Origin: Candidatus Kerfeldbacteria bacterium
GTDB taxonomy: Bacteria > Patescibacteriota > Patescibacteriia > SBBC01 > CAIJZX01
Direction of reading: 5' to 3'
DNA length: 64,000 bases
Assembly: GCA_963731735.1 (NCBI GenBank)
Contig: CAVSWO010000002.1
Span: 628,257-692,256, forward strand
This document shows positions 4,917-39,173 of this stretch, piece by piece; within the stretch, counting starts at the first letter, position 1; each line of letters begins with the position of its first letter. The notes beneath the pieces were generated by a model, which saw nothing but the letters and a program-made list of their open reading frames with translations, was not told the origin of the DNA and did not search any database. The translations under genes and the position numbers were made by a program.

Positions 4917-6278
4917 ATGGCCAAGCTCGAAACGACCAAGATGGACCAGATTGTGAACCTGGCGAAACGCCGAGGTTTTGTTTTTCCGAGCGCGGAGATT
5001 TATGGCGGCCTGGGCGGTTTTTGGGACTGGGGTCCGCTCGGGGTCCTACTCAAGAACAATATCAAACAGGAATTTTGGAAAACATTTGTCCAGCAACGCG
5101 ATGATGTGGTTGGGCTGGATGGTTCAATTATTACCAACCCGAACGTTTGGCAGGCCAGCGGTCATGTCGCCGGATTTGCCGACGAATTAGTCGAGTGCAA
5201 AAAATGCCACCATCGGTTTAAGGCAGACGATGTTGAAGCCAAGTGCCCGGATTGCGGCGGCGATTTTACTCCAGCCCGAAAATTCAACACTATGTTTCGG
5301 ACCTTTGTCGGTCCAGCCGAGGAGAGCGCGAGTACCGCGTATTTGCGTCCCGAAACCGCCCAAAATATTTTTGCGAATTTTGAACTGGTTCGGGAGTCGC
5401 TGCGTAAAAAATTACCGTTTGGAATCGCGCAAATTGGTAAAGCTTTTCGGAATGAAATCACCCCCGGCAACTTCATTTTCCGCTCGCGGGAGTTTGAACA
5501 AATGGAGATTGAGTACTTTGTAAAACCCGGCGATGATGATCAAGTCTTTGATCAATGGGTGCGGGCTTGCCATCAGTGGTTCTTAGACCTCGGGCTTTCG
5601 AAGGACAACCTGCGTTTAGCTCAACAGCCGGTGGCGGAATTAGCGCACTATGCTAAAGCTACCACCGATATCGAATTTGCCTTCCCAATCGAAAAAGGCT
5701 GGGCCGAGCTGATGGGCGTGGCTAATCGCACTGATTATGATTTACGGCAACATGGCCAGCATGCTCGGGCTGATGAAAACGCCTTCGCAACCGCCATCGA
5801 TTCTGAAGGCCGGACAAAAAAAGTCCCGTATGTGATTGAGCCGTCGATGGGCGTTGACCGAGCCGCGCTCGCCTTCATACTTGATGCCTACACAGTCATT
5901 AAAGGGGGACGCTCGACCACAACCGAAAGTATCAAAGAAGCGGAAGTTGTTTTGAAACTCCATCCAAAACTCGCGCCGTACAAAGCGGCGATTTTACCCT
6001 TGTCAAAAAAACCAGCCCTGCAAAAAATTGGGCAAGAAATAGCCAAGACGCTTCGACAGCAATGGTTTATCGATTACGACGAAACTGGGTCGATCGGCAA
6101 ACGCTATCGCCGTCAGGATGAAATCGGGACGCCGCTGTGCATCACGGTCGACTTTGATACGATTGAAGGCACCAAGCGCCCAAAACAAACCGTGACCGTC
6201 CGCAATCGCGATACCATGGCCCAAGCGGCGGTGGCGATTGAAGACTTGCCTGCGTATGTGGCGAAAACTCTGGCCTAG
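4917..6278 (+). CDS. glyQS: glycyl-tRNA synthetase, alpha2 (class II) type
   Basis: The sequence FRNEITPGNFIFRSREFEQMEIEYF is class II motif 2. Length is 453 aa, and the HCKKCHHRF...CPDCGG insertion is typical of GlyRS. Confidence 0.9.
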   Translation: MAKLETTKMDQIVNLAKRRGFVFPSAEIYGGLGGFWDWGPLGVLLKNNIKQEFWKTFVQQRDDVVGLDGSIITNPNVWQASGHVAGFADELVECKKCHHRFKADDVEAKCPDCGGDFTPARKFNTMFRTFVGPAEESASTAYLRPETAQNIFANFELVRESLRKKLPFGIAQIGKAFRNEITPGNFIFRSREFEQMEIEYFVKPGDDDQVFDQWVRACHQWFLDLGLSKDNLRLAQQPVAELAHYAKATTDIEFAFPIEKGWAELMGVANRTDYDLRQHGQHARADENAFATAIDSEGRTKKVPYVIEPSMGVDRAALAFILDAYTVIKGGRSTTTESIKEAEVVLKLHPKLAPYKAAILPLSKKPALQKIGQEIAKTLRQQWFIDYDETGSIGKRYRRQDEIGTPLCITVDFDTIEGTKRPKQTVTVRNRDTMAQAAVAIEDLPAYVAKTLA

Positions 6279-7959
6279 TTTACTGGTGCTGGGTTTGGTG
6301 GTTTTCGCCCGCCCGGTGTTTGCGCAAGCCTGGTCGATACCTGAGTTTCAGGCAGACATCACGATTAACCAAGACGCATCGATTGACGTGGTCGAAGTGA
6401 TTCGAGTTGACTTTGGCACGGCTAAACACGGCATCTACCGAACCATACCTTTTCGCTACACCGTCGGTGACAATTCGACGGTCAGTGTGCCATTGACGAT
6501 TCGCAGCGTGCGGATGGACGGCCGATCAATCAAATATACAGAGCGGCAGAGTGGAAACGATGTGACGTTGAAAATTGGTGATCCCAACACCACCATCACC
6601 GGCGCGCATGTCTATACGATTGATTATACGGCGCAAGCCGCCATCAATTTCTTCAGTGACCACGACGAGCTCTATTGGAACGTGACCGGTAGCGATTGGG
6701 AGGTGCCGATCCAAAGTGTTAGCGCCAGTGTGCATTGGCCGTCCCAGGTATCGGCTGACCAGCAGCGGGTCGGTTGCTATACCGGCGCCATCGGTTCCCG
6801 GGCGCGTGACTGCCTGGCCCAAGCTGAAACTGGTCAAGCGACGTTTTCGGCGCAAGATTTTCTGACGGTTGTTGTCGGTGCGCCGCCGGGGACGGTGACC
6901 AAACCAGCCAATTACGATACCCTTCGGACGTCGGCCGGTCAATCCGAATTTACCCGACGGTTTCTTTCGATGCCAATCATGAGCTTGAACCTCTTGATTC
7001 TCCTGGGATCGATGGTTGGCATAGTGGTTGCCTGGCGTCGCTACGGTCGCGATCCACGCAGTCGTGGAACGGTGATCGCACAATACGAACCTCCGGCCGG
7101 GCTGCGACCAGGTGAAGTCGGTGTGGTATTTAATGAACGGGCAAACCAGCGCGATCTGTCGGCCACAATCATTGATTTGGCCGTTCGCGGCTATCTTGAA
7201 ATTACGGAAATTGAAAAGAAGCACGCGCTCGGTCTTGGCCACTCAACCGACTACAAACTCAATCTGAAAAAATCCATTAATGATAGCGCTTTGCAACCCT
7301 ATGAACAGCAAATGCTCAAGGGCCTGTTTGGAACAGCCAAGCAGCAGGTCTTATCCGATCGCAAAGGCAAGATGCATACCGAGGTGAAACAAGCCCAAAC
7401 AGGTTTGTATCAACGGGTGGTTAGGCTGGGACTCTTTGACCACAACCCGCAACGCACGCGCTGGACTTTCGCGGGGGTGGGCATTGCCTTACTGTTTTCG
7501 GGTTTTTGGATTGTTCCATCAGGCATTGTGGCGGTACCAGTCATGGGACTGGTTTTCCTGATCGCCGCGCCGTTTATGCCGAAGCGCACGAAAGCCGGGG
7601 TTGACGCATATTGGCAGGCCCGTGGTTTTAAACTGTTTTTAGAAAAGGCGGAGAAGTATCGCCTCAAGTGGCAAGAAAAAGAACACATCTTCGAGCAATA
7701 CTTACCCTACGCCATGGTTTTTGGAGTGGCCGATAAATGGAGCAAAGCCTTCAAGGATCTGCAGCAGGCGCCGCCGGACTGGTATCATGGGGCAGCCGGC
7801 GGTCAATTCAACACCCTTTTGCTGTGGTCAGCCTTGAGTAATTTTACTTCGGTTTCGGCCGCCAGCTTCGCGCCGCCGGCCGCCAGCGGCAGTTCCGGTT
7901 TTGGCGGCGGTGGATTCTCGGGCGGGGGATTCGGTGGGGGCGGCGGCGGATCTTGGTAA
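6238..7959 (+). CDS. DUF2207-like membrane protein with a glycine-rich C-terminus
   Basis: It has an N-terminal signal, a large extracytoplasmic domain, TM helices and the C-terminal sequence SGSSGFGGGGFSGGGFGGGGGGSW. An alternative start lies at 6256. Confidence 0.65.
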   Translation: MKTCLRMWRKLWPSLLVLGLVVFARPVFAQAWSIPEFQADITINQDASIDVVEVIRVDFGTAKHGIYRTIPFRYTVGDNSTVSVPLTIRSVRMDGRSIKYTERQSGNDVTLKIGDPNTTITGAHVYTIDYTAQAAINFFSDHDELYWNVTGSDWEVPIQSVSASVHWPSQVSADQQRVGCYTGAIGSRARDCLAQAETGQATFSAQDFLTVVVGAPPGTVTKPANYDTLRTSAGQSEFTRRFLSMPIMSLNLLILLGSMVGIVVAWRRYGRDPRSRGTVIAQYEPPAGLRPGEVGVVFNERANQRDLSATIIDLAVRGYLEITEIEKKHALGLGHSTDYKLNLKKSINDSALQPYEQQMLKGLFGTAKQQVLSDRKGKMHTEVKQAQTGLYQRVVRLGLFDHNPQRTRWTFAGVGIALLFSGFWIVPSGIVAVPVMGLVFLIAAPFMPKRTKAGVDAYWQARGFKLFLEKAEKYRLKWQEKEHIFEQYLPYAMVFGVADKWSKAFKDLQQAPPDWYHGAAGGQFNTLLLWSALSNFTSVSAASFAPPAASGSSGFGGGGFSGGGFGGGGGGSW

Positions 7960-30008: not shown

Positions 30009-30056
30009 ATGAAACGCAAGAAACCGCGGCGGTTACGCGCTGTTATAGGATGTAAA

Positions 30057-30710
30057 TTATTTTCGCCTCTTCGTCGAACGCTTTGTGTACTTTGCGGGTG
30101 ATACAGTACATACAAAGCTCATCCAATTATTGCCGCCTTCCGATTTCTGGAACTGCTTGATAACTCGGAAACCATGTTCCCGCAGAATGTTCCTAAATTC
30201 ATTTTTGGAATAAAAGGCAAAAAATCTCGTTACACCGCCGTATTTTTCTTGCGTGATTACTTGTTCATCAACATTACTTTTTTCTTTCATCGAAACCACA
30301 AACATGCCTTGCGGTGTTAACAGACGGCGAATAGAACGAAGGACCTTCGGCAGCCGCCTTTTTGGAATATGGAGCAAGGTAGCAATAGACCACACTGCAT
30401 CAAACTGGTGAGCCGGAAAGCGGAGATCATAAAAGCTCATTTTCTTGAATGTGCCCTTTGGATTGAGTTTTTGTGCTAACGCTAAGAGTCCTTTTGAAGC
30501 GTCGGTACCGATGTAGTCAAAACCGGCCTGAAGTAGATCATGTGCGTCTCGACCGCCCCCACACCCGATTTCGAGGACGCGGTTGCCGTGAATTTGGCGA
30601 TGAAGTTCATCCAGTTCATCTTTCCAAAAATGAAACATCCGATTCGTTGTAGCATACTTCGGCGCAATTTTGTCGTAGGCTTCGATTGTTTGTTTTGTGC
30701 GTAAGTCCAT
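30057..30710 (-). CDS. class I SAM-dependent methyltransferase (Methyltransf_11-like)
   Basis: Motif I reads VLEIGCGGGRDAHDL. It is the first gene of the AT-rich island and is convergent with the helicase gene. Confidence 0.75.
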   Translation of the reverse strand: MDLRTKQTIEAYDKIAPKYATTNRMFHFWKDELDELHRQIHGNRVLEIGCGGGRDAHDLLQAGFDYIGTDASKGLLALAQKLNPKGTFKKMSFYDLRFPAHQFDAVWSIATLLHIPKRRLPKVLRSIRRLLTPQGMFVVSMKEKSNVDEQVITQEKYGGVTRFFAFYSKNEFRNILREHGFRVIKQFQKSEGGNNWMSFVCTVSPAKYTKRSTKRRK

Positions 30711-30921
30711 GAGCGAAAATAATTTATTTCCGATAACGTTTGCGCGTACACGATTTTACGTAGTATATCGGGTACGCGCTGTTGTACGGAGTCGGGGTTC
30801 CGAACATTGACAAGTGTCAGGTTCTATGTAAAAGTCTAACACACTTTGTACATTCCCTGGTAGCTTAGATTCAACAGGGCGTTGTTTCTAGGTAGCCATC
30901 GACTCATTAGGAGACATAGCC

Positions 30922-31251
30922 ATGAGTAGTGGTAGTGTCGCCCGACAGGAGCGCGAGTTTCTGGCGTGTGTGATCCGTCATCTCCCAGAGCTTTTTCCAA
31001 ATGAACGGCAGGCGTGGATTGAAAACCAGGATCTTCTGTCCGAAAGGTTGGAGCTAGCCCTGGACATGGTAAGCCCCAGGATCAAACTCCTTGAACGTCT
31101 AAATGAAGGAGTGACGCGCGTCACAAAAAAAGGTCATGCCGCCAAGATAAGACTCTTTCTGTTCAATCTTGGCTCTGAAGACCAAGTGACTGTCGATAAG
31201 CTTGCACGAGCAATCGTTCAAGCTGTTGACCCAGCATCACTCAAAGAGTAG
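30922..31251 (+). CDS. hypothetical 109-aa protein
   Basis: The gene has a TTGACA-16-TAAAAG promoter-like element, an AGGAGA RBS 7 nt before the ATG, and a strong terminator. The product is not recognised. Confidence 0.55.
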   Translation: MSSGSVARQEREFLACVIRHLPELFPNERQAWIENQDLLSERLELALDMVSPRIKLLERLNEGVTRVTKKGHAAKIRLFLFNLGSEDQVTVDKLARAIVQAVDPASLKE

Positions 31252-31265
31252 TGGCACAGATAAGT

Positions 31266-31309
31266 AACGGACTTCGAGATTACATCAACGAGTCCGTTTA
31301 ATTTTTTTA
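31266..31309 (+). terminator. intrinsic terminator
   Basis: The hairpin AACGGACT-(16 nt)-AGTCCGTT is followed by TAATTTTTTT. Confidence 0.7.
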
Positions 31310-31394
31310 CTAGGAACCCCGATTTCGTACAACGTTTGCGTCTCATACGACCGTCTGCCGTAGCAATAGCGAAGGCAGATGTCGTATAGACGCT

Positions 31395-31418
31395 GTTAGG
31401 AGATGTAACAATAGGGTC
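31395..31418. repeat. left copy of the 24-bp inverted repeat GTTAGGAGATGTAACAATAGGGTC
   Basis: Matches the reverse complement of 32072..32095 at 22 of 24 positions. It abuts the stop codon of the kinase gene. Confidence 0.8.
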
Positions 31419-32055
31419 ACTTGGTTAGTAGTTTAATCGCTTTCTTCAGCTGTCCGCTAAAATCGTTGTCCATGTTGAGAACCTTGAATTTGTACTTCCG
31501 CGCTTCTTTATTAAAAAACTGTCCATAGTAACTGACCATTTGTGCGATTTTGTACAAAGTCTTTTTGTTTAAAGTCTTGCGAAGTATCCAATCGTTTGGA
31601 GTTGAGCTTTTCTTTGTATCATGCACAAACTTTTCAATATCAGACTTCACAAGAAAAAGAACGCGGAAATGTTTACCGCCATATTTTTTAATAAGTCGAG
31701 CTGCAAGTTGTGGCGTTATGTGGTAGCCCTCTAGAATGTAGTCATTCCCATCTTTGATTTCAGATATGGCAAACATATCTAAAGCATCATAACTTGCTAC
31801 AGCTTGCTTCATGTAATTTTTGGCAACCCGATGTGGAGTGTTGCGTGAATATGTTTCATCATTTGTTTTACCTTTTTTGGAACTGTGAGGATACAATCTC
31901 GCAAGCGCTTGCTTGGAGACATACTTCGAAACATATTCACGAACTACAACTTGCAGCGTGTCAGAAGCAACCCACTGGATTCCGAGCCCTTTGGACAGTT
32001 TTTTGGCGAGTGTGGTCTTACCACATTTTGGCGGACCACCGATTAAATAAATCAT
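31417..32055 (-). CDS. P-loop NTPase/kinase-fold protein, possibly a nucleoside/nucleotide kinase
   Basis: The Walker A motif is IYLIGGPPKCGKTTLAKKL. Length is 212 aa. The gene is AT-rich. Confidence 0.65.
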   Translation of the reverse strand: MIYLIGGPPKCGKTTLAKKLSKGLGIQWVASDTLQVVVREYVSKYVSKQALARLYPHSSKKGKTNDETYSRNTPHRVAKNYMKQAVASYDALDMFAISEIKDGNDYILEGYHITPQLAARLIKKYGGKHFRVLFLVKSDIEKFVHDTKKSSTPNDWILRKTLNKKTLYKIAQMVSYYGQFFNKEARKYKFKVLNMDNDFSGQLKKAIKLLTK

Positions 32056-32071
32056 AGTTGTGATTCAGCAA

Positions 32072-32095
32072 GACCCTATTGTTATTTCTCCTAAC
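32072..32095. repeat. right copy of the 24-bp inverted repeat (GACCCTATTGTTATTTCTCCTAAC)
   Basis: Lies 17 nt upstream of the kinase start codon. It is the reverse complement of the 31395..31418 repeat. Confidence 0.8.
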
Positions 32096-32265
32096 GTCAG
32101 GGATATACGAAGTTTTGCGACGAAGGAGTAAAATTTGGGTGAGGGGCGAGCCGAGCCCCGAACCGTATGTCCCTTGTTAAGTGACCCGAACGGAATGAAA
32201 TGGAGTGAGAGCGCAGCGGGGCTTGAGTTGAGGATTTGTCCTTCATTATAAAAAAGGGCAAAAAA

Positions 32266-33084
32266 TTATTTTTCAGCAACCCAAAATAATCTGTGACTAC
32301 TTAATTTTATACCTTCCTTGTTAAGTTTTTTATCAACCTCTTCAAGATGTGCCTTGTCTTTCATTTTATCAAAATCTGGAATTATTGGGGCTCTTTCAAG
32401 AATTTCTATAACATCGTTAATTGACGAATACACCTGATGAAATTTAAAGTATTTTGATTCAACGAGTTTCATTCCAGATTGTGCCAATAATTTTTTTACT
32501 AATTCAAGTTTTGTTTTCTGATTAGGATAATTTTGCCCTCTTCTAAAAATTTTTTTGAGTTCGATTTTATCCTTCTCGCCAATAGTTTCTTCAATCATCA
32601 GCCCTCCTTTTTTTAAAACGCGAAAACTTTCTCTAATAAAATCAATGTTGGCAGAAAGGGGTCCTCTTGAGCTGAAAATAATATCAAAATGGTCATCTTC
32701 AAAAGGCAAATTTTTTCCATCTGCAACCTTGAAAATAACATTTTTAGCTTCAACAGATTTTTTAAGTTTATCTGCGGATTTTATGTAATCCTCAAAAGGA
32801 TCAATGCCAACAATTTCTTTAAAAAATGGGGAAAGTTTGAGTGTTAGTTCGCCAGACCCACATCCCAAATCCAATATTTTAAAATTTTTGTTGGCGAATT
32901 TTTTAAGAAACTCAAAAAAATTTGGTTTTTCTCCAGCGATTAATTTACCTTGTCCATGAAGCTCGTATTTTTTAAATTTCGTTGAACTTTTCTTATAAAA
33001 AATATCGTGATGATCTTTCATGTTTGTCTTGTTATTAAATAATTTTTTGCCCCTATATATTTTTGGACAAATCCTCAATTTCAC
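32266..33084 (-). CDS. class I SAM-dependent methyltransferase, very AT-rich
   Basis: Motif I is ILDLGCGSGELTL, and the post-I acidic residue and FEDDHFDIIFS are present. The start may be the internal MKDHH at ~33021. Confidence 0.7.
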   Translation of the reverse strand: MKLRICPKIYRGKKLFNNKTNMKDHHDIFYKKSSTKFKKYELHGQGKLIAGEKPNFFEFLKKFANKNFKILDLGCGSGELTLKLSPFFKEIVGIDPFEDYIKSADKLKKSVEAKNVIFKVADGKNLPFEDDHFDIIFSSRGPLSANIDFIRESFRVLKKGGLMIEETIGEKDKIELKKIFRRGQNYPNQKTKLELVKKLLAQSGMKLVESKYFKFHQVYSSINDVIEILERAPIIPDFDKMKDKAHLEEVDKKLNKEGIKLSSHRLFWVAEK

Positions 33085-33280
33085 TTAACGATTGCGCGTA
33101 GGCGAAGTTCGTCGGTGATACAATCGTACCATCACCGGCGAACTTAGGCGAGCGGTTTCTAGGGGATGGCCTTCGGGCGGCCACAGAAACCCGAGCCGCC
33201 TACGCGCTGTTGTACGATGATTTGCCGACCGCCGCATATGTAAAAGAAAAGCGTGGTTGTCTCCATGTTACCCGACATTC

Positions 33281-33335
33281 TTGACACGAACTAATCCTTA
33301 TGCTATCCTGCTTTGTCAATTCATGGTGAATTGAC
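33281..33335 (+). promoter_or_regulatory. sigma70-like promoter (TTGACA-17-TATCCT) followed by a perfect 9-bp palindrome GTCAATTCA-TGG-TGAATTGAC, a putative operator
   Basis: Read directly from the sequence. The palindrome lies at the predicted transcription start. A GGAGG RBS lies 7 nt before ATG 33358. Confidence 0.55.
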
Positions 33336-33357
33336 TGCTCCTTTCGGAGGTAGAGCG

Positions 33358-33660
33358 ATGCCAGACATTCGCGTGTCCATTCCTCATCGGCTCGGCAAGC
33401 CCGAAGCGCTCAAGCGAGTTCGCACGCTCCTGACGAACGTCAAGCGTGACCATGGTGACCAGGTCAGCAACCTCGAGGAGCGCTGGCATGACAACGGTGC
33501 CAGGTTCAGCTTCAGTACCATGGGCTTCGATGTCTCGGGGCAGCTGACCGTGAGTGACCGAGAAGTCACTGTCACGGGCAAGCTCCCCTGGCTGGCGGGC
33601 ATGTTCAAGGGTCAGATCGAGGACACGATCCGCGATCAGGCCAGCGAGCTTCTCGTCTAG
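33358..33660 (+). CDS. small protein resembling the 'putative polyhydroxyalkanoic acid system protein' family (PHA_gran_rgn-like)
   Basis: The sequence MPDIRVSIPHRLGKPEALKRV...GQLTVSDREVTVTGKLPWLAGMFKGQIEDTIRD fits the ~95-aa family pattern. The track start of 33313 was replaced by the RBS-supported ATG at 33358. Confidence 0.5.
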   Translation: MPDIRVSIPHRLGKPEALKRVRTLLTNVKRDHGDQVSNLEERWHDNGARFSFSTMGFDVSGQLTVSDREVTVTGKLPWLAGMFKGQIEDTIRDQASELLV

Positions 33661-33691
33661 GGCGCTCCAAGGAATCATCTCCGATAACATG

Positions 33692-33730
33692 GGTCCGGGA
33701 GTAGCGATACTCTCGGACCTAGCTTTTCTT
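33692..33730 (+). terminator. intrinsic terminator
   Basis: A 12-bp stem GGTCCGGGAGTA-GCGA-TACTCTCGGACC is followed by TAGCTTTTCTT. Confidence 0.65.
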
Positions 33731-33899
33731 ACAACATAGGGAGGCAAATTTTCGTACAACGTTTCGGCGTAGACGATAGTGGCGACAGCGCGGAGGCGGT
33801 ACACTTTTCTTGACCGCCGGAGCGACGAGCCATTTCGCGTATACACCAGTGCTTTATATGACGTTTCAGTCTGTCTAATCATACTACCAGCCGGTGTCT

Positions 33900-34343
33900 T
33901 CAGTAAAACTTTCCTATACCAATGTTCTCTAGGGCAAGTTTTGTCTTGAGGCAACACATTGACTGGAAGGTTGCCGATGGAAAAACCAGGTGAGAGCATT
34001 CCATTGATCTCCAGGTTCCATATTTGTTCATTTCTACTGTCCATTTATCTGCAGTGAGGTACAATATCAAAGTCATTCTCGATCTGTAGAAAGTCTGTGC
34101 ATGATGTGAACAAGCTTTAACATCCTCAGGTGCAAGTATTATCCCAGCTTCTTCATGAGATTCGCGAATAATAGTCTCTTTTGCTCCGTTGTTTTCGCGA
34201 CCTTCCAGATGACCAGCAACCACACTGTAATTTCCATCTTGATAGCCTGTATTTAATATCTTCGGAGAAGTAAAACTTGCCCATCTTTTTTCAAGGACAA
34301 GATAAGCTGCTACGAAGGCTCTGAACTTTTCTTTGCTGTACAT
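33900..34343 (-). CDS. NUDIX hydrolase, possibly frameshifted near 34050
   Basis: The Nudix box GHLEGRENNGAKETIIRESHEEAGI is present. The overlapping ORF 33316..34044 in another frame reads NEQIWNLEINGMLSPGF, which resembles the usual Nudix C-terminal region. A perfect TATAAT -10 and an ATACGAAC-agag-GTTCGTAT palindrome lie upstream. Confidence 0.65.
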   Translation of the reverse strand: MYSKEKFRAFVAAYLVLEKRWASFTSPKILNTGYQDGNYSVVAGHLEGRENNGAKETIIRESHEEAGIILAPEDVKACSHHAQTFYRSRMTLILYLTADKWTVEMNKYGTWRSMECSHLVFPSATFQSMCCLKTKLALENIGIGKFY

Positions 34344-34465
34344 AAGTTTATTCTCTAACAGACAGAAGACGAAATGCCATATAACTCGTTATTATACGAA
34401 CTCTGTTCGTATCATAGCCCCTCGAGCCGGGTTTGGCCAGAAAAATACTGAATATATTATGCCAT

Positions 34466-34497: not shown

Positions 34498-34506
34498 TTG
34501 GATGTG

Positions 34507-34578
34507 AACATTGAGTGAGATTTGAACTCACGACCTTCTCCTCCGTAGGGAGACGCTCTATGACTGAGCTATCAATGC
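34507..34578 (-). tRNA. tRNA-Arg (anticodon ACG) with an atypical D-loop lacking GG
   Basis: Manual fold: acceptor stem GCATTGA/TCAATGT (G1-T72 wobble), D-stem GCTC/GAGC with loop AGTCATA, anticodon stem TCTCC/GGAGA with loop CTACGGA, T-arm GTGAG-TTCAAAT-CTCAC. Length 72 nt, with no encoded CCA. Confidence 0.65.
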
Positions 34579-34582
34579 TCTT

Positions 34583-34865
34583 ATTTGATTAGTTCAATGA
34601 ACAGATGAGGTGACGAGCGCTGCAAAGGCAGCAATGGGATGGTTCGTTCGCAACCGCTCCCACCTCTACCAGAAAGGAGGCTCGTCACCAAAAAAGAATG
34701 GAGGGACACGCGGTGGCGTCTCGTGCCGCTGGAAGGATTCCAGGCAGCTTGCGGCCCCTCCAAGGAGCCGGCATGGGGGAATTGCCCGACAAGGCATCCC
34801 GCACAAGCATCATGCTTGCCTCGGTGTTTTTTGCGAGGACACCAGAGCCCATGCCGGAAATGACC
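34583..34865 (-). ncRNA. structured non-coding region of unknown identity
   Basis: No credible ORF. Several long-range complementary segments are present: CCGGCATGGG...CCCATGCCGG, GGTGACGAGC...GCTCGTCACC, CAAGCATGATGCTTG and CTGGAATCCTTCCAG. Confidence 0.3.
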
Positions 34866-34943
34866 GGAAGAAAAGCGAGCAGAGAGCCGAAGCCGGTGTC
34901 TCCAGCAACACCCGTGCCCGGGAACATTGCACGCTCTGCTCGC
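34866..34943 (-). terminator. long terminator-like hairpin following the tRNA-like gene
   Basis: On the minus strand, GCGAGCAGAG...(49 nt with an internal GCTTCGGC tetraloop)...CTCTGCTCGC is followed by TTTTCTTCC. Confidence 0.4.
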
Positions 34944-34948
34944 CAATG

Positions 34949-35060
34949 CGACGGAGGCGGGAATCGAACCCGGATCTCGAGAACTTTCCGTTTCGATCTG
35001 ACCATCTCGAGATCGTGCTGGCTTGGGAAAGCCAGCCTGTACCACACAGCCTCCTCCGTC
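34949..35060 (-). ncRNA. 112-nt noncanonical tRNA-like gene with an 8-bp acceptor stem, 4-bp T-stem and very long extra arm (tRNA-Sec / allo-tRNA-like architecture)
   Basis: Minus strand: GACGGAGG...(A)GGCTGT-GTGGT-ACAGGC / GCTGGC-TTTCCCAA-GCCAGC / a 10-bp extra arm GATCTCGAGA...TCTCGAGATC / CGGG-TTCGATT-CCCG / CCTCCGTC-G. The anticodon loop has 8 nt, so the anticodon is ambiguous. CCC is the likeliest, with U33 and A37. Confidence 0.5.
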
Positions 35061-35111
35061 AATGCTGTTAAGAACCTGGCGCACCGTATCATGCGGGCCG
35101 AAATCAGTCAA

Positions 35112-35143
35112 GACAAAAAAAGACCCCTAGCGGACTAGGGGTC
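35112..35143 (-). terminator. intrinsic terminator of the 35135..35662 gene
   Basis: On the minus strand, GACCCCTAGTCCGCTAGGGGTC is followed by TTTTTTTGTCTT. Confidence 0.6.
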
Positions 35144-35662
35144 GGGATGCTCGAGAATCATACAGGATGCCACGAAGGCGTAACCCGGGTACAGGCTGAT
35201 CCAAGCCTGATCGGCGACTTCGCAAACGAGCCCGAGCCCGCGGTGATCCAGCATGTAGAGTGGCTGGATTGCGCACAGCTGCTTGGGCAGAGCCTGGACC
35301 GTCGGGGCGACCCGATTCCAGGTGAGGATGGTGAAAATGCGGTGCGGGGCTTGACCGCTGACGATCAGCAAGTCGTGCGCCCGGGTTCCGTCCAAAGCGT
35401 GGCGGAGCGAATTTGGGAACAGCTCCAGGGCGGCCAGGGACAGCTTGGCGAAGCAATGCGGTTCCAGCTGCAACGACCGCAGTCGCACGTCAAGCGCCTC
35501 CGACAAAGCATCGATCTGTGCCTGGCCAGCCGGATAAATGAAAGGCCAGGTAACGGATTGACCCAAGCGAACTCGAGCCATGAAGACATGATCGTCGATC
35601 TTGTCGATCAGCATCTTGGTCAGGGGCTCCGGCGGCCCCAGCGGATATTCTGTCGCATGCAC
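35135..35662 (-). CDS. hypothetical 175-aa protein
   Basis: The minus strand is preferred over the overlapping plus ORF 35147..35782 because it ends in an intrinsic terminator and has more protein-like composition. Confidence 0.45.
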   Translation of the reverse strand: MHATEYPLGPPEPLTKMLIDKIDDHVFMARVRLGQSVTWPFIYPAGQAQIDALSEALDVRLRSLQLEPHCFAKLSLAALELFPNSLRHALDGTRAHDLLIVSGQAPHRIFTILTWNRVAPTVQALPKQLCAIQPLYMLDHRGLGLVCEVADQAWISLYPGYAFVASCMILEHPDP

Positions 35663-35760: not shown

Positions 35761-36189
35761 ATGTCGTTGGTGCGATTTCTGATTATCGTAACTGTTGGGA
35801 CGCTGTGCGCCTGGGGCGCTTGGGTGATGGTTATTTTGACGCTTGACCCGCAAACGGGCGGTGCGGTGGCGGTTGGCCTGTTCAGTTTAAGTTTGTGGCT
35901 GGCCCTGATCGGGACGATCACCTTGGCGGGATTTTTTCTGCGCTACTGGCTGGAAAAACAAGCCGTGCCGTTCCGGCAATTGGGCATCGCTTTCCGCCAA
36001 GCCGTGATTGTCGGCAGTTTAGCGGTCCTGGGGTTACTGCTCCAGGCCGGGCGGATCTTGCACTGGTGGACGATCGTCATGATCGTGGCCTTTGGATTGC
36101 TGGTGGAATTCTACGCCCTGGCCGGCGACGCGCGCCGTCCGAATACGGTTGACCATGAACCGCAGCAACCACAACCAACCGCCGACTAA
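35761..36189 (+). CDS. small polytopic membrane protein
   Basis: Four hydrophobic helices (IIVTVGTLCAWGAWVMVILTL etc.). No motif recognised. Confidence 0.5.
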   Translation: MSLVRFLIIVTVGTLCAWGAWVMVILTLDPQTGGAVAVGLFSLSLWLALIGTITLAGFFLRYWLEKQAVPFRQLGIAFRQAVIVGSLAVLGLLLQAGRILHWWTIVMIVAFGLLVEFYALAGDARRPNTVDHEPQQPQPTAD

Positions 36190-36898
36190 TCCCATGGACC
36201 ACGGCCACCTGCATCCGCTTACCCAGTACGCCCGTCGAGTGCTCGACGTCTGGCGCAGTCTTGGCTATGACTTGCATACCGGACCCGAGCTGGAAACCGC
36301 TTGGTTCACCTTTGACGGGTTGAATGTCCCGCCGGATCACCCGGCTCGGGATATCCAGGACACCTTCTTTATTAAAGACCATGACGATCTGGTCTTGCGG
36401 ACGCACGCTTCGACGGTCCAATTACGCTGGCCGAAGTCTCATCGGGCCAAACCGCCGTATCGGGTGGTGGAAATCGGCAAAGTTTACCGCCATGAAGCAA
36501 CCGACGCCACCCACGAGTCGATGTTCTTCCAGTGCGACGGGGTGCTAATTGACCGCCAGGTAACGATGGCGCAGCTGGTCACGACGCTCCGGGCCTTCAT
36601 TAAAAAACTTTATCCGGACAAAAAATCGCGTATCCGACCGAGCTTCTTTCCGTTCGTCGAACCGGGGATTGAACTTGATGTCTGGTGGGAACAGCCGGGC
36701 AAGGACGGAAAATGGTTGGAGATTCTCGGCGCCGGGTTGGTGCATCCGCGCGTGATTGAAAACATGGGCTTCGATCCGAAGGACTGGCAGGGGTTTGCGT
36801 TCGGCTGGGGACTCGATCGTTTGGCGATGCTCGAATTCGGTATCCAAGATATCCGCCTGTTCTATAACGGCAATCTTGAATTTTTGAAACAGTTCTAA
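36158..36898 (+). CDS. pheS: phenylalanyl-tRNA synthetase alpha subunit, catalytic core only (start uncertain: 36158 or 36194)
   Basis: Aligns from GHLHPLTQYARRV...FTFDGLNVPPDHPARD onward with the E. coli PheS core. Class II motifs FRPSFFPFVEPG and GAGLVHP are present. It lacks the N-terminal helical region. Confidence 0.8.
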   Translation, partial: NRSNHNQPPTNPMDHGHLHPLTQYARRVLDVWRSLGYDLHTGPELETAWFTFDGLNVPPDHPARDIQDTFFIKDHDDLVLRTHASTVQLRWPKSHRAKPPYRVVEIGKVYRHEATDATHESMFFQCDGVLIDRQVTMAQLVTTLRAFIKKLYPDKKSRIRPSFFPFVEPGIELDVWWEQPGKDGKWLEILGAGLVHPRVIENMGFDPKDWQGFAFGWGLDRLAMLEFGIQDIRLFYNGNLEFLKQF

Positions 36899-36899
36899 C

Positions 36900-39173
36900 A
36901 TGGAAGTACCGATTCGCTGGCTCAAAGAATATATCCGGCCGCTGCCGAGCTTGACGAAACTCTCGGAGATCTTATTGATGCACGGCCTTGAAGTCGAGGC
37001 GGTGATTGATCGGAGCCGGGATTTTCAGCAAGTGGTGGTGGGCGAAGTAACCGGTGTCAAACCCCATCCGAACGCCGATCAACTTCGTTTGACCGAGGTG
37101 GTGGTGGCCGCCGGTCGCCCGGCAATTGAAATTGTCTGCGGCGCTCCAAACGTCGCGGTCGGACAAAAAGTGCCGGTGGCGCTCCTGGGTGCGGTGTTAC
37201 CCAACGGTCTAACTATCGCGAATCGCCGCATTCGCGGAATTGCTTCGAACGGCATGCTTTGCGCCGAGGATGAACTGGGACTCGGGAAACACCATGCCGG
37301 TATCTTGGTGCTGGATCCGGGTCTGCCGCCGGGCACACCCCTGGCCAAAGCCCTCGGACTTGACCAGCCGATCTTGGATATCGCGATCCCGGCCAACCGC
37401 AGCGACTTAATGAGCGTCCGCGGCCTGGCTTGGGAAATTGGCGCCATGCTCGGGAAGCCACCAAAATTTCCGAAGGTAAAATTTTCGGAATCCACGACCG
37501 CCATGACAGTCAAAGTCAACGTTACCGACGCCAAGCTGTGCCCGCTCTATACCGCCCGATCCATCCGCGGCCTGACGGTCGGTCCGTCACCGCTCTGGCT
37601 GCAATCGTGGCTATGGGCGGCCGGGATGCGGCCGATTAATGTGGTGGTGGATGTCACCAATTACGTGATGTTGAATTACGGCCAACCGCTGCATGCCTTT
37701 GATGCGGCCAAGGTCAGGCAGCAGACGATTACGGTGCGTCCGGCCGCGCCGGGAGAAACACTCGTGACCCTGGATGGTCAAGCGCGTCAGCTGGATCCGT
37801 CGATGCTGGTGATCGCCGATACCGGGGGACCAATCGCGCTGGCTGGGGTCAAAGGCGGTCTCGAGAGTGGCGTGACTGACCAGACGACGGAAATTATTTT
37901 GGAATCAGCCATTTTTGATCCGGTTTCGATTCGTAAAACTTCTCGCCATCTCGGCCTAGTCTCGGAAGCATCGAAACGCTACGAAAAAGGACTGTGGCCG
38001 GCCTTGGCGCTTGAGGCCAGTCGGGTGGCGGCCGCGCTGATCGCCGAACTGGGTGGCGGCGCGATTGACCGGGGGAGTCTGGAGGTTGGCGTTACCACGC
38101 GCGCGCCGCAGGTCGTTGCAATCGATCCGAAGTATATCGCCGAGCGATTGGGCATGTCGGTTTCGACCGCCAAGGCCAAAACAATCTTAACCAAGCTCGG
38201 CTTCACGATCAGTGGCCGACCGACGTGGCAGGTGACGGTTCCGGCCTGGCGGCTTGATGTATGCTTGCCCGAAGATATTGTGGATGAAGTTGGACGGATG
38301 CTGGGGTACGAAAGCATTCCAACCGCGCGATCGTCGGGTTCACCAACGGTCACCGAGATTCCGCCGGCCATTCGATTTGCCGAAGAGGTCAAGAATAGTT
38401 TAGTTGCGCTGGGTGGCACCGAGATTATTTCGCACGCTTTCTATAGCGCCGAAGCGGCGGCCGCCCAAACCGGCCGGCATTATCAGATTGCCAACCCGCT
38501 GGATAAGACACAGGGCATGTTGCGACGGAGTTTACTCCCGCAGATGCGGATGGTGTTGCAACGGGCGGCGGACGCCGGACAGGATGTCACAATTTTTGAA
38601 CTTGGACGAATCTTTGATCCGGAACTGCCGGGCGCAATTGACCGCAAGCAACCGTGGAAAATCGCGCTCGGCGCGACTCATAAAGGATCAGCCTCGGTGC
38701 TGACGCCGCTGGTGTCAAAACTCCAAGCCGTGCTCAAAGCCGATATTCCGGTTGCGATGAAGCAGGCGCCGGAGCGGGTACGCGGACGCCAGCTCGAATA
38801 CCTCGAGCTCGACTTGACTGCGCTCCAAACCACTTCAAGCGCGACCTTCGGTCCCTGGGACCCTGAACGGTACGCGCGTCCAGCCGGCGCCTATCGTGAG
38901 CCGTCAAAGTATCCCGCCATTACCCGCGATATTTCCTTCTGGTGGCCGGGTGACAAATCGTCGCTCCAGGCGCTGATTGATGACTTCCAGTCGAACCACA
39001 GCTTACTGTGGGAGACGGTCAGCAAAGACGAATTCATCAAGGATGACCGCACCAGCTATCTCATCTCATTTGTTTTCCAGTCCGCCGATCGAACCCTGAC
39101 CAAGGCCGAAGTTGATCAACTCGAAACTCAAATGAAAACCGCCTTAACCAAGCAGGGGGCGAGTATTCGATAA
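36900..39173 (+). CDS. pheT: phenylalanyl-tRNA synthetase beta subunit
   Basis: The tRNA-binding fold reads VVGEVTGVKPHPNADQLRLTEV. B3/4 and B5 regions and the C-terminal ferredoxin-fold anticodon-binding domain are present. Length is 757 aa. Confidence 0.85.
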   Translation: MEVPIRWLKEYIRPLPSLTKLSEILLMHGLEVEAVIDRSRDFQQVVVGEVTGVKPHPNADQLRLTEVVVAAGRPAIEIVCGAPNVAVGQKVPVALLGAVLPNGLTIANRRIRGIASNGMLCAEDELGLGKHHAGILVLDPGLPPGTPLAKALGLDQPILDIAIPANRSDLMSVRGLAWEIGAMLGKPPKFPKVKFSESTTAMTVKVNVTDAKLCPLYTARSIRGLTVGPSPLWLQSWLWAAGMRPINVVVDVTNYVMLNYGQPLHAFDAAKVRQQTITVRPAAPGETLVTLDGQARQLDPSMLVIADTGGPIALAGVKGGLESGVTDQTTEIILESAIFDPVSIRKTSRHLGLVSEASKRYEKGLWPALALEASRVAAALIAELGGGAIDRGSLEVGVTTRAPQVVAIDPKYIAERLGMSVSTAKAKTILTKLGFTISGRPTWQVTVPAWRLDVCLPEDIVDEVGRMLGYESIPTARSSGSPTVTEIPPAIRFAEEVKNSLVALGGTEIISHAFYSAEAAAAQTGRHYQIANPLDKTQGMLRRSLLPQMRMVLQRAADAGQDVTIFELGRIFDPELPGAIDRKQPWKIALGATHKGSASVLTPLVSKLQAVLKADIPVAMKQAPERVRGRQLEYLELDLTALQTTSSATFGPWDPERYARPAGAYREPSKYPAITRDISFWWPGDKSSLQALIDDFQSNHSLLWETVSKDEFIKDDRTSYLISFVFQSADRTLTKAEVDQLETQMKTALTKQGASIR

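Follow-up and report, generated by a model that had tools for sequence, protein, structure and literature searches.

The locus described here raises the question whether a gene that folds like a transfer RNA (tRNA), and departs from regular tRNAs in its anticodon and extra arms, is a decoder, a decaying copy or an RNA with a role of its own. It lies on the minus strand of a 64,000-nt stretch of DNA from a Candidatus Kerfeldbacteria bacterium (hereafter the window, a 64-kb section through which alone the genome was viewed) and encodes an RNA of 112 nt with an 8-bp acceptor stem, a 4-bp T-stem (8/4) and a long extra (variable, V) arm. Tentatively, and granting it somewhat less than an even chance, we favour the reading that this RNA is expressed as a tRNA mimic of the 8/4 allo-tRNA type, derived from tRNA-Ser, probably serylated and not a regular decoder.

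In the numbering used here, position i of the RNA corresponds to window position 35061 - i. Read 5' to 3' (35060-34949), the RNA consists of GACGGAGG AGG CUGUG UGG UACAG GCUGGC UUUCCCAA GCCAGC AC and continues after this AC with GAUCUCGAGA-(22 nt)-UCUCGAGAUC CGGG UUCGAUU CCCG CCUCCGUC G; the positions of the arms are listed in Table 1. An initial annotation of the window had described a gene of exactly this extent with an 8-bp acceptor stem, a 4-bp T-stem, a long extra arm and a discriminator G, and all of these were recovered both by reading of the sequence and by folding with RNAfold. The 8/4 split is forced and not chosen, because C88, immediately 5' of the T-stem, faces C104, with which it cannot pair, while G8 can and does pair with C104. 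The acceptor stem (8/8), the T-stem (4/4) and the V-stem (10/10) are made up entirely of Watson-Crick pairs, the anticodon stem holds 6-8 pairs, and the D-stem combines four Watson-Crick pairs with one G-U pair (12-16/20-24) around the loop UGG, or alternatively forms 4 bp with a 5-nt loop. Stems so fully paired argue against decay of the gene. The 10-bp stem that had been proposed for the extra arm is perfect, within an arm of 44 nt. Of the two 6-bp stems proposed for the D- and anticodon arms, that of the anticodon arm stands and that of the D-arm falls: ACAGGC (21-26) and GCUGGC (25-30) both use G25 and C26, so the two stems cannot coexist. The anticodon loop allows three readings, namely 8 nt (UUUCCCAA), a stem extended to 7 bp with a 6-nt loop, or an 8-bp helix capped by a UCCC tetraloop, the last being that of the minimum free energy (MFE) structure; the UU and AA at either end of the loop make its further closure to 7 or 8 bp possible.

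The fold is not a chance product of base composition. With RNAfold, the MFE and centroid structures were one and the same cloverleaf (-53 kcal/mol, z = -3.9); none of 200 shuffled sequences was as stable. A geometric scan, which asked for a T-loop TTCRANY, at least four Watson-Crick T-stem pairs and a perfect acceptor stem of 7-8 bp with its strands 70-200 nt apart, found this RNA as its single match in the 64 kb, against a mean of 0.01 matches per dinucleotide shuffle (2 of 300 shuffles contained any). The GC content of the RNA (0.59) is in line with that of the host and not with that of a low-GC island nearby. The V-stem motif is not a dispersed palindromic repeat of the window to any significant degree (four matches versus 1.7 expected). 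An intron, of group I or another type, was considered for the extra arm and rejected, the insert amounting to 44 nt only and a short bacterial V-arm intron having no known mechanism; the known tRNA introns of Patescibacteria are group I elements within the anticodon loop (PMC13011429). Open reading frames (ORFs) of up to 176 aa that overlap the RNA look like GC-driven artefacts, being rich in Arg, Gly, Pro and Ser and overlapping one another in several frames; no homolog search was made for them.

Checks with ARAGORN and Rfam models, which the initial annotation had recommended, gave no call for the full RNA: in the window, ARAGORN and Rfam at gathering thresholds both reported nothing other than a tRNA-Arg(ACG). 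A relaxed Rfam search placed the RNA in the tRNA clan (CL00001), with tRNA-Sec (RF01852) as the top model, matched end to end at 29.5 bits (E = 0.0015 for a search of 1 kb), short of the 47 bits set as its gathering score. Once the V-arm had been shortened in silico to at most 24 nt, ARAGORN called a tRNA and gave its loop as irregular, (tccc) or (cc); when one C of the loop was removed as well, it called tRNA-Gly(UCC). Arm length and loop size thus hide the gene from standard tools, and its body is tRNA-like. The general features of a tRNA are present, with a cloverleaf of four arms, the T-loop UUCGAUU and GG in the D-loop. Two others are lacking: the untrimmed RNA reaches neither a curated tRNA score nor a finder call, and where an anticodon loop of 7 nt, with U33 and a purine as residue 37, would be expected, it has a loop of 8 nt, which the flanking U-A pairs, when formed, shorten to 6 or 4 nt.

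Among the classes of irregular tRNAs, the allo-tRNAs agree best with this architecture, and the comparison made in the initial annotation was upheld at that level. The 12-bp acceptor branch expected of them (8/4 or 9/3) is present as 8 + 4 Watson-Crick pairs, the long extra arm and the anticodon stem of more than 5 bp as 44 nt and 6 bp, and the discriminator G73 or U73, a seryl-tRNA synthetase (SerRS) identity element, as G. Likeness to allo-tRNAs was judged on architecture, as there is no allo-tRNA family in Rfam. The other kinship that had been suggested, a genuine tRNA-Sec or a recoding tRNA derived from it, would fit RF01852 as the best model together with the 8-bp acceptor stem, the long extra arm and G73. 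We nevertheless consider it barely credible: the RF01852 score stays below its gathering threshold, the branch comprises 12 bp and not the 13 bp of the bacterial 8/5 type, there is no UCA anticodon, and neither SelA/SelB/SelD domains, a search for which had been recommended, nor other Sec genes were found among the scanned window ORFs (the longest non-overlapping ORFs of the 64 kb). No SerRS and no integrase were found in this set either.

The RNA looks derived from the tRNA-Ser lineage. In global alignments with 13 tRNAs and tRNA-like RNAs from the window and from relatives, the highest score was obtained with a tRNA-Ser(GCU) of the 7/5 type (z = 4.5; the other 12 ranged from 0.2 to 2.9), which occupies the same locus in L066, among the closest relatives found (84% PheS identity). 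Both RNAs have the same 12 nt from the T-loop to the discriminator G, and their D-regions are similar. Position 8 is G in the window RNA and U in this tRNA-Ser, while the equivalent of position 49 is C in the former and G in the latter; by these two differences one pair moves from the T-stem to the acceptor stem, which turns 7/5 into 8/4.

From these properties a course of events may be proposed. The transcript would be cut out by RNase P and 3' nucleases and then receive its CCA end. Charging with serine by SerRS is probable, given that G73 and a long extra arm are SerRS identity elements and that this enzyme ignores the anticodon. The anticodon arm, whose 8-nt loop can zip into an 8-bp helix, would make the RNA a poor decoder or none at all, and because of this a role apart from normal decoding is envisaged: as a tRNA mimic it may be a decoy or partner of a tRNA-recognising protein, or it may carry an aminoacyl group.

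A role in recoding had been raised by the initial annotation, and in its broadest form it would make the RNA an active decoder of low efficiency, charged with serine or otherwise, that reads GGG/GGA by missense or GGGA as a quadruplet (+1) through the loop UU-UCCC-AA. The loop does offer UCCC between a U33-like and an A37-like residue, as a quadruplet reader would have it, or else UCC or CCC, and ARAGORN reads (tccc) on the trimmed variant; moreover, allo-tRNAs can be efficient missense and nonsense suppressors in E. coli (PMC5389517, PMC7609411), and the window holds two genes, atpA and atpG, that need a +1 shift. The codon usage of the host speaks against such a decoder. In 30 confident housekeeping genes (12,720 codons) GGG occurs 170 times (13.4 per 1000) and GGA 162 times (12.7 per 1000), and GGG-A stands 54 times in frame, so that GGG is not the rare codon for which a check had been recommended. 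With GGG and GGA this common, efficient Ser-for-Gly or GGGA quadruplet decoding is unlikely, since it would be toxic. The identity elements of the RNA (G73, A2-U71, C3-G70) are presumably not those recognised by GlyRS in tRNA-Gly. To this come the capacity of the loop to close into an 8-bp helix and the neighbouring pheS, which is not frameshifted. We therefore hold a low-efficiency decoder to be rather improbable, and a recoding role is unsupported and disfavoured.

The two shifted genes do not change this picture. Both atpA (window 21257) and atpG (22449) require the +1 shift at the hexamer GGCCTT, within GUC GGC CUU AUC in atpA and AAC GGC CUU UGA C in atpG, and none of GGCC, CUUA and CUUU is complementary to UCCC, CCC or UCC, so there is no link between these sites and the RNA. 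An 8-nt loop, as in a frameshift suppressor, is possible, but the sites at which a +1 reading would restore a gene are not cognate, and natural quadruplet decoding in a genome with two +1-shifted ATP-synthase genes is very doubtful indeed. As to the shifts themselves, a random assembly error is unlikely because all other long genes of the window are intact; they could go back to a genuine mutation, to a sequencing error specific to the motif or to programmed frameshifting. The +1 reading of atpA gives NVGLSVSRVG, identical in the eight relatives whose junction was inspected, and AtpA is full-length (about 496-542 aa) in all 120 relatives listed. In several of the closest AtpG relatives an F precedes [DE]Y.FEP, which would be consistent with an extra C after GGC. 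The atpG sequence CUU UGA C is the shift site of E. coli prfB. In pheT, GGC CTT GAA occurs in frame at 36984 and is read normally. A frameshift in pheS was suspected from a 142-aa ORF overlapping one of 268 aa and dismissed, as the upstream ORF encodes a membrane protein and pheS is intact.

Expression of the RNA is suggested by predicted signals on either side. The initial annotation had placed the gene between the terminator of an upstream gene and a terminator-like hairpin of its own, and this appears to be so, the former being called by a consensus scan and the latter by folding alone; the downstream hairpin is not called by the scan because its loop exceeds 8 nt. Together with a putative promoter 22 nt upstream of the RNA 5' end (Table 1), these elements make the gene look like a stand-alone transcription unit. 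In four relatives (L070, L147, L151 and L152) the first irregular tRNA-like gene is preceded, at a distance of 21-24 nt, by the same promoter layout, TTGACx-17-TAnnnT.

The place of the RNA in the chromosome was compared with the addA-pheS regions of 15 relatives (PheS 74-84% identical), for which metagenomes were scanned by a protein-guided search. Common to all 15 is the gene order addA, an ORF of ~165-183 aa on the minus strand, a small membrane protein, pheS and pheT. The content of the addA-pheS interval differs between every pair of relatives examined: the slot holds a changing set of tRNA genes, usually behind a TTGACx-17-TAnnnT promoter and before a terminator, and many of these are irregular. 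The window RNA is the local occupant of this hypervariable slot for irregular tRNAs.

The irregularities take several forms. The Sec-like RNA of L065 has a true bacterial 8/5 fold and a 7-nt loop CUUCGAC with the anticodon UCG (Arg), and is missed by ARAGORN; its V-arm has no significant homology with that of the window RNA (148 of 2000 shuffles score as well). In a conserved family found in four relatives, a normal acceptor stem, D-arm and T-arm (GGGCAUNUAGCUCAG...) are combined with a ~10-bp hairpin that replaces the anticodon arm. The stem sequence of this hairpin varies by genome, its loop contains GGUUCG in L065, L070 and L147, and the L151 copy has in addition a 33-nt D-loop insert and a 5-nt T-loop. 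The tRNA-Met-like gene of L070 obtains 43.5 bits with the Rfam tRNA model and is missed by ARAGORN. Members of a Leu/Ser-like class II family are each the first gene after the promoter, where the window RNA also stands, but are not similar to it in sequence; their anticodon loops differ (UUAAGGG, 11 nt and CCAAGGG). Finally, two tRNAs with UGA (Ser) and UCA (opal) anticodons, in L147 (6676-6752) and L152 (7616-7689), have bodies that do not suit these anticodons and could be suppressor-type tRNAs in genomes of otherwise standard code.

Several observations weigh against an expressed and functional mimic. The -10 element of the putative promoter is weak (3/6 of the consensus), and the consensus scan did not list the promoter. 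A2-U71 and C3-G70 differ from the acceptor stem of the tRNA-Ser of L066. No ortholog of the RNA that could show covariation was found in the 15 syntenic relatives, including by blastn against all fetched sequences; being guided by protein matches, the metagenome scan may have passed over homologs that lie elsewhere in a genome. A scan of 185,579 species genomes with the anticodon-loop pattern CTTTCCCAAG N{28,58} GGTTCGAWTCC, the only pattern used there, gave 59 matches, all of them chance 10-mers before or near ordinary tRNA genes; two scans of viral contigs, with a 21-mer of the T/acceptor region and a 21-mer of the anticodon arm, gave none. A blastn search of plasmids likewise returned no match to the RNA. 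The slot itself is hypervariable and some of the irregular tRNA-likes of relatives look degenerate: the Leu/Ser-like copy of L151 has an acceptor mismatch, and those of L151 and L152 fold no better than shuffled sequences.

Such observations would suit a young or neutral pseudogene, that is, a duplicated Ser-like class II tRNA which took up a V-arm insertion and an extra anticodon-loop base at a locus of fast turnover, has no function and has not yet decayed. Its uniqueness to this genome within the searches made, the turnover of the addA-pheS interval between relatives, the clearly degenerate tRNA-likes in the slot of L151 and L152, the non-standard anticodon loop and the adjoining horizontally acquired low-GC cassettes all agree with this explanation. 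A pseudogene is not expected, however, to keep every stem intact, including the 10-bp V-stem, along with a canonical T-loop, and the passage from 7/5 to 8/4 needs two coordinated differences that preserve the 12-bp branch. The gene also has promoter-like and terminator-like signals of its own. Streamlined genomes are expected to delete idle DNA, and that of the host, whose contig measures ~0.82 Mb, looks streamlined. On balance we consider a pseudogene unlikely, though a serious contender.

The proximity of foreign DNA brings up another explanation, already mentioned in the initial annotation, by which the RNA would be a remnant of an integration site or part of the neighbouring mobile DNA, as a tRNA-like attachment (att) site or as cassette cargo. 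Genes for tRNA and tRNA-Sec are classic targets of islands, and an integron-like cassette array of low GC content, which relatives lack, begins ~450 nt away from the RNA. The RNA is complete, however, and not a 3' fragment; neither its 3' 22 nt nor the 3' end of the tRNA-Arg has a second copy in the window with up to 3 mismatches; its GC content of 0.59 fits the host and not the island; and the scanned window ORFs included no integrase. An origin of this kind is accordingly very improbable, and the preferred reading remains that of a tRNA-Ser-derived mimic.

The island itself has no counterpart in any fetched relative, by blastn or synteny, and is laid out like an integron cassette array. Its ORFs encode two S-adenosylmethionine-dependent (SAM) methyltransferases, a P-loop ATPase, a NUDIX protein and unknowns, each bounded by inverted repeats of the ...RYYYAAC / GTTRRRY type with imperfect palindromes between them. 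These attC-like sites lie at 30731-30790, 31326-31405, 32088-32190, 33083-33215 and ~33745-33830, with a partial one at 30015-30050. The tRNA-Arg(ACG) between the island and host DNA is atypical, with a G1-U72 pair, a discriminator U, a D-loop AGUCAUA without GG and 47% GC versus 58% in the host, and may have arrived with foreign DNA. The spacer that separates this tRNA from the terminator-like hairpin of the RNA (34579-34868 in the folding) contains a four-way junction with a 10-bp closing stem (34856-34767; segment z = -2.7) and a long branched hairpin closed by GGUGACGAGC/GCUCGUCACC (~34689-34609; z = -4.5); it has no Rfam match and no similarity or syntenic counterpart in the fetched relatives.

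Otherwise, the scanned window ORFs are those of a core chromosome (ClpB, MetRS, ThrS, the ATP synthase operon, AddA, GyrB, DnaE, GatB, MiaA, FtsW), and the PheS and PheT genes lie 1.1 kb from the RNA. The upstream orf175 is a very fast-evolving ortholog of the ~165-183-aa ORF in eight of the relatives (L060, L062, L065, L146, L147, L149, L151 and L152), whose copies share 12-23% identity with that of the window and have a single Pro that is invariant. A search for its function gave weak HATPase-like matches only, and the ortholog keeps a constant position beside the irregular tRNA slot. PheS (36155-36898) is short in this Kerfeldbacteria subclade (~234-247 aa; PheS matches P0001-P0016) and comprises the core domain only, while PheS of more distant Kerfeldbacteria has ~325-335 aa and keeps the N-terminal PF02912 domain.

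Table 1 Positions of the features in the window and of the tRNA genes in the corresponding slot of relatives (L numbers)
Feature	Position	Strand	Description
tRNA-like RNA	34949..35060	minus	112 nt, 8/4, class II, discriminator G, CCA not encoded
Acceptor stem, 5' strand	35053..35060	minus	GACGGAGG; 8/8 Watson-Crick pairs with 34950-34957
Acceptor stem, 3' strand	34949..34957	minus	CCUCCGUC (34957-34950) and discriminator G (34949)
D-arm	35037..35049	minus	CUGU(G)/(U)ACAG, loop with G18 G19; RNAfold; UGGU aligned by Rfam to the tRNA-Sec D-loop
Anticodon arm	35017..35036	minus	6-bp stem GCUGGC/GCCAGC, 8-nt loop UUUCCCAA (35030-35023)
Extra (variable) arm	34973..35016	minus	44 nt: 2-nt linker, perfect 10-bp stem GAUCUCGAGA/UCUCGAGAUC, 22-nt loop
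T-arm	34958..34972	minus	CGGG-UUCGAUU-CCCG, 4 bp, canonical loop
Putative promoter	35083..35111	minus	TTGACT (35111-35106), 17-nt spacer, TACGGT (35088-35083), 22 nt upstream of the RNA 5' end
Terminator-like branched hairpin	34867..34944	minus	11-bp closing stem (34944-34874), then UUUUCUU; folding only
Intrinsic terminator of orf175	35122..35143	minus	35143-35122; separates orf175 from the RNA unit; consensus scan
Spacer	34579-34866	minus	Non-coding, strongly structured, ~290 nt, between RNA terminator and tRNA-Arg
orf175	35135-35662	minus	
tRNA-Arg(ACG)	34506-34578	minus	ARAGORN, Rfam
Low-GC island	~30010-34400		30-47% GC versus 55-60% in the host
L066 tRNA-Ser(GCU), tRNA-Cys	200-288 and next gene		Normal tRNAs
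L065 tRNA-Sec-like RNA	7312-7457	minus	146 nt, 8/5, RF01852 44.4 bits (gathering 47), ~77-nt extra arm
Hairpin-anticodon family	L065 6909-6992; L070 6122-6214; L147 6763-6848; L151 5637-5735		
L070 tRNA-Met-like gene	6001-6113	minus	Loop CUCAUGA, ~45-nt T-loop insert, U1-U72 mismatch
Leu/Ser-like class II family	L062 5234-5358; L151 5830-5955; L152 7715-7836		~47-nt extra arms
L147 7/5 RNA	6539-6666		128 nt, G73 and CCA
L147 class I tRNA body	6676-6752		UGA (Ser) anticodon
L152 irregular tRNA	7616-7689		74 nt, UCA (opal) anticodon; labelled tRNA-SeC by ARAGORN
L060/L061, L146, L149	Same slot		No tRNA

Across the Kerfeldbacteria compared, the expansions of tRNA-like RNAs cover extra arms of 44-77 nt, anticodon arms in the form of long hairpins and T-loop inserts of 45 nt. 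A bolder proposal would place the window RNA in a whole set of promoter-driven and expanded tRNA mimics that spans the clade and diversifies fast. Such mimics would act away from the ribosome, for instance by serving phage or competitor nucleases that attack tRNAs as decoy targets, or by carrying aminoacyl groups as their dedicated task, and this would be a way of using tRNA scaffolds that has not yet been described for ultra-small bacteria. We regard this proposal as speculative and, as it stands, unlikely. Should the RNA be expressed and charged, the 8/4 allo-type tRNAs would extend to the Candidate Phyla Radiation (CPR), and a natural tRNA scaffold would be seen to tolerate a 44-nt extra arm together with an 8-nt anticodon loop. 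The RNA and the irregular genes of its relatives point to a non-standard tRNA pool in streamlined genomes that is mostly missed by standard annotation, which has consequences for the assessment of tRNA sets, and of possible recoding, in genomes of the CPR. They may also offer natural templates for the engineering of tRNAs with long extra arms, and the integron-like cassettes of a CPR genome may deserve a separate look.

Compared with known RNAs, the window RNA shares with the tRNA-Ser(GCU) of L066 the 12-nt T/acceptor 3' strand, the discriminator G, a similar D-region and the slot. That tRNA is of the 7/5 type, carries a Ser anticodon in a loop of 7 nt and has a V-stem of 5 bp, whereas the window RNA has a 10-bp V-stem with a 22-nt loop, and UUUCCCAA in its anticodon arm. 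With bacterial tRNA-Sec (RF01852) it has in common the 8-bp acceptor stem, the UGGU-type D-loop, the 6-bp anticodon stem, the long extra arm and G73; the 13-bp 8/5 branch and the UCA anticodon belong to tRNA-Sec alone, and the RNA stays below the gathering score of that family. Frameshift-suppressor tRNAs with 8-nt anticodon loops exist, such as the sufD tRNA-Gly with CCCC. These resemble the window RNA in an 8-nt loop with a run of C able to read GGGN; unlike them, the RNA has G73 and not U73, together with A2-U71 and C3-G70, and is encoded by a natural stand-alone gene and not by a mutated resident tRNA gene.

The 8/4 allo-tRNAs come closer. They too combine a 12-bp 8/4 branch and a long extra arm with G73, an anticodon stem of 6 bp and a non-Ser anticodon, and they also sit beside other irregular tRNAs and mobile DNA. 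Their D-arm is compact and Sec-like, with a long stem and a tetraloop; the D-stem of the window RNA consists of four Watson-Crick pairs and one G-U around a loop of 3 nt, or of 4 bp around one of 5 nt. The RNA differs from them in its 44-nt arm and in an anticodon loop of 8 and not 7 nt, and its host belongs to the CPR/Patescibacteria, whereas hosts reported for 8/4 allo-tRNAs are Clostridia, Proteobacteria and Acidobacteria. An extra arm of 44 nt is, to our knowledge, far longer than that of any class II tRNA. Allo-tRNAs are serylated by virtue of G73 and the long arm whatever the anticodon (Mukai et al. 2017, NAR 45:2776; PMC5389517; review PMC7609411). Their anticodons are many and different; some of them suppress in E. 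coli, while others are inactive in translation and have been proposed to be regulatory or tied to mobile or toxin-antitoxin genes (PMC5389517, PMC7609411). Engineered allo-tRNAs stay active with extended extra arms (PMC7590224).

Beyond the single RNA, the Kerfeldbacteria slot has its nearest parallel in the polycistrons of irregular tRNAs in Acidobacteria, which are promoter-driven, have odd arms (E-loops, 8/4, G-1), lie near accessory or mobile genes and include members that can be charged and yet are not used in translation (PMC5389517). In both, promoters drive groups of tRNA-like genes with odd arms, and accessory or mobile genes lie close by. The two occur in different phyla, and no toxin-antitoxin genes were recognised near the window RNA. 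In contrast to the Acidobacteria genes, those of the Kerfeldbacteria carry much larger insertions, with V-arms of up to ~77 nt, a 45-nt T-loop insert and a hairpin in place of the anticodon arm.

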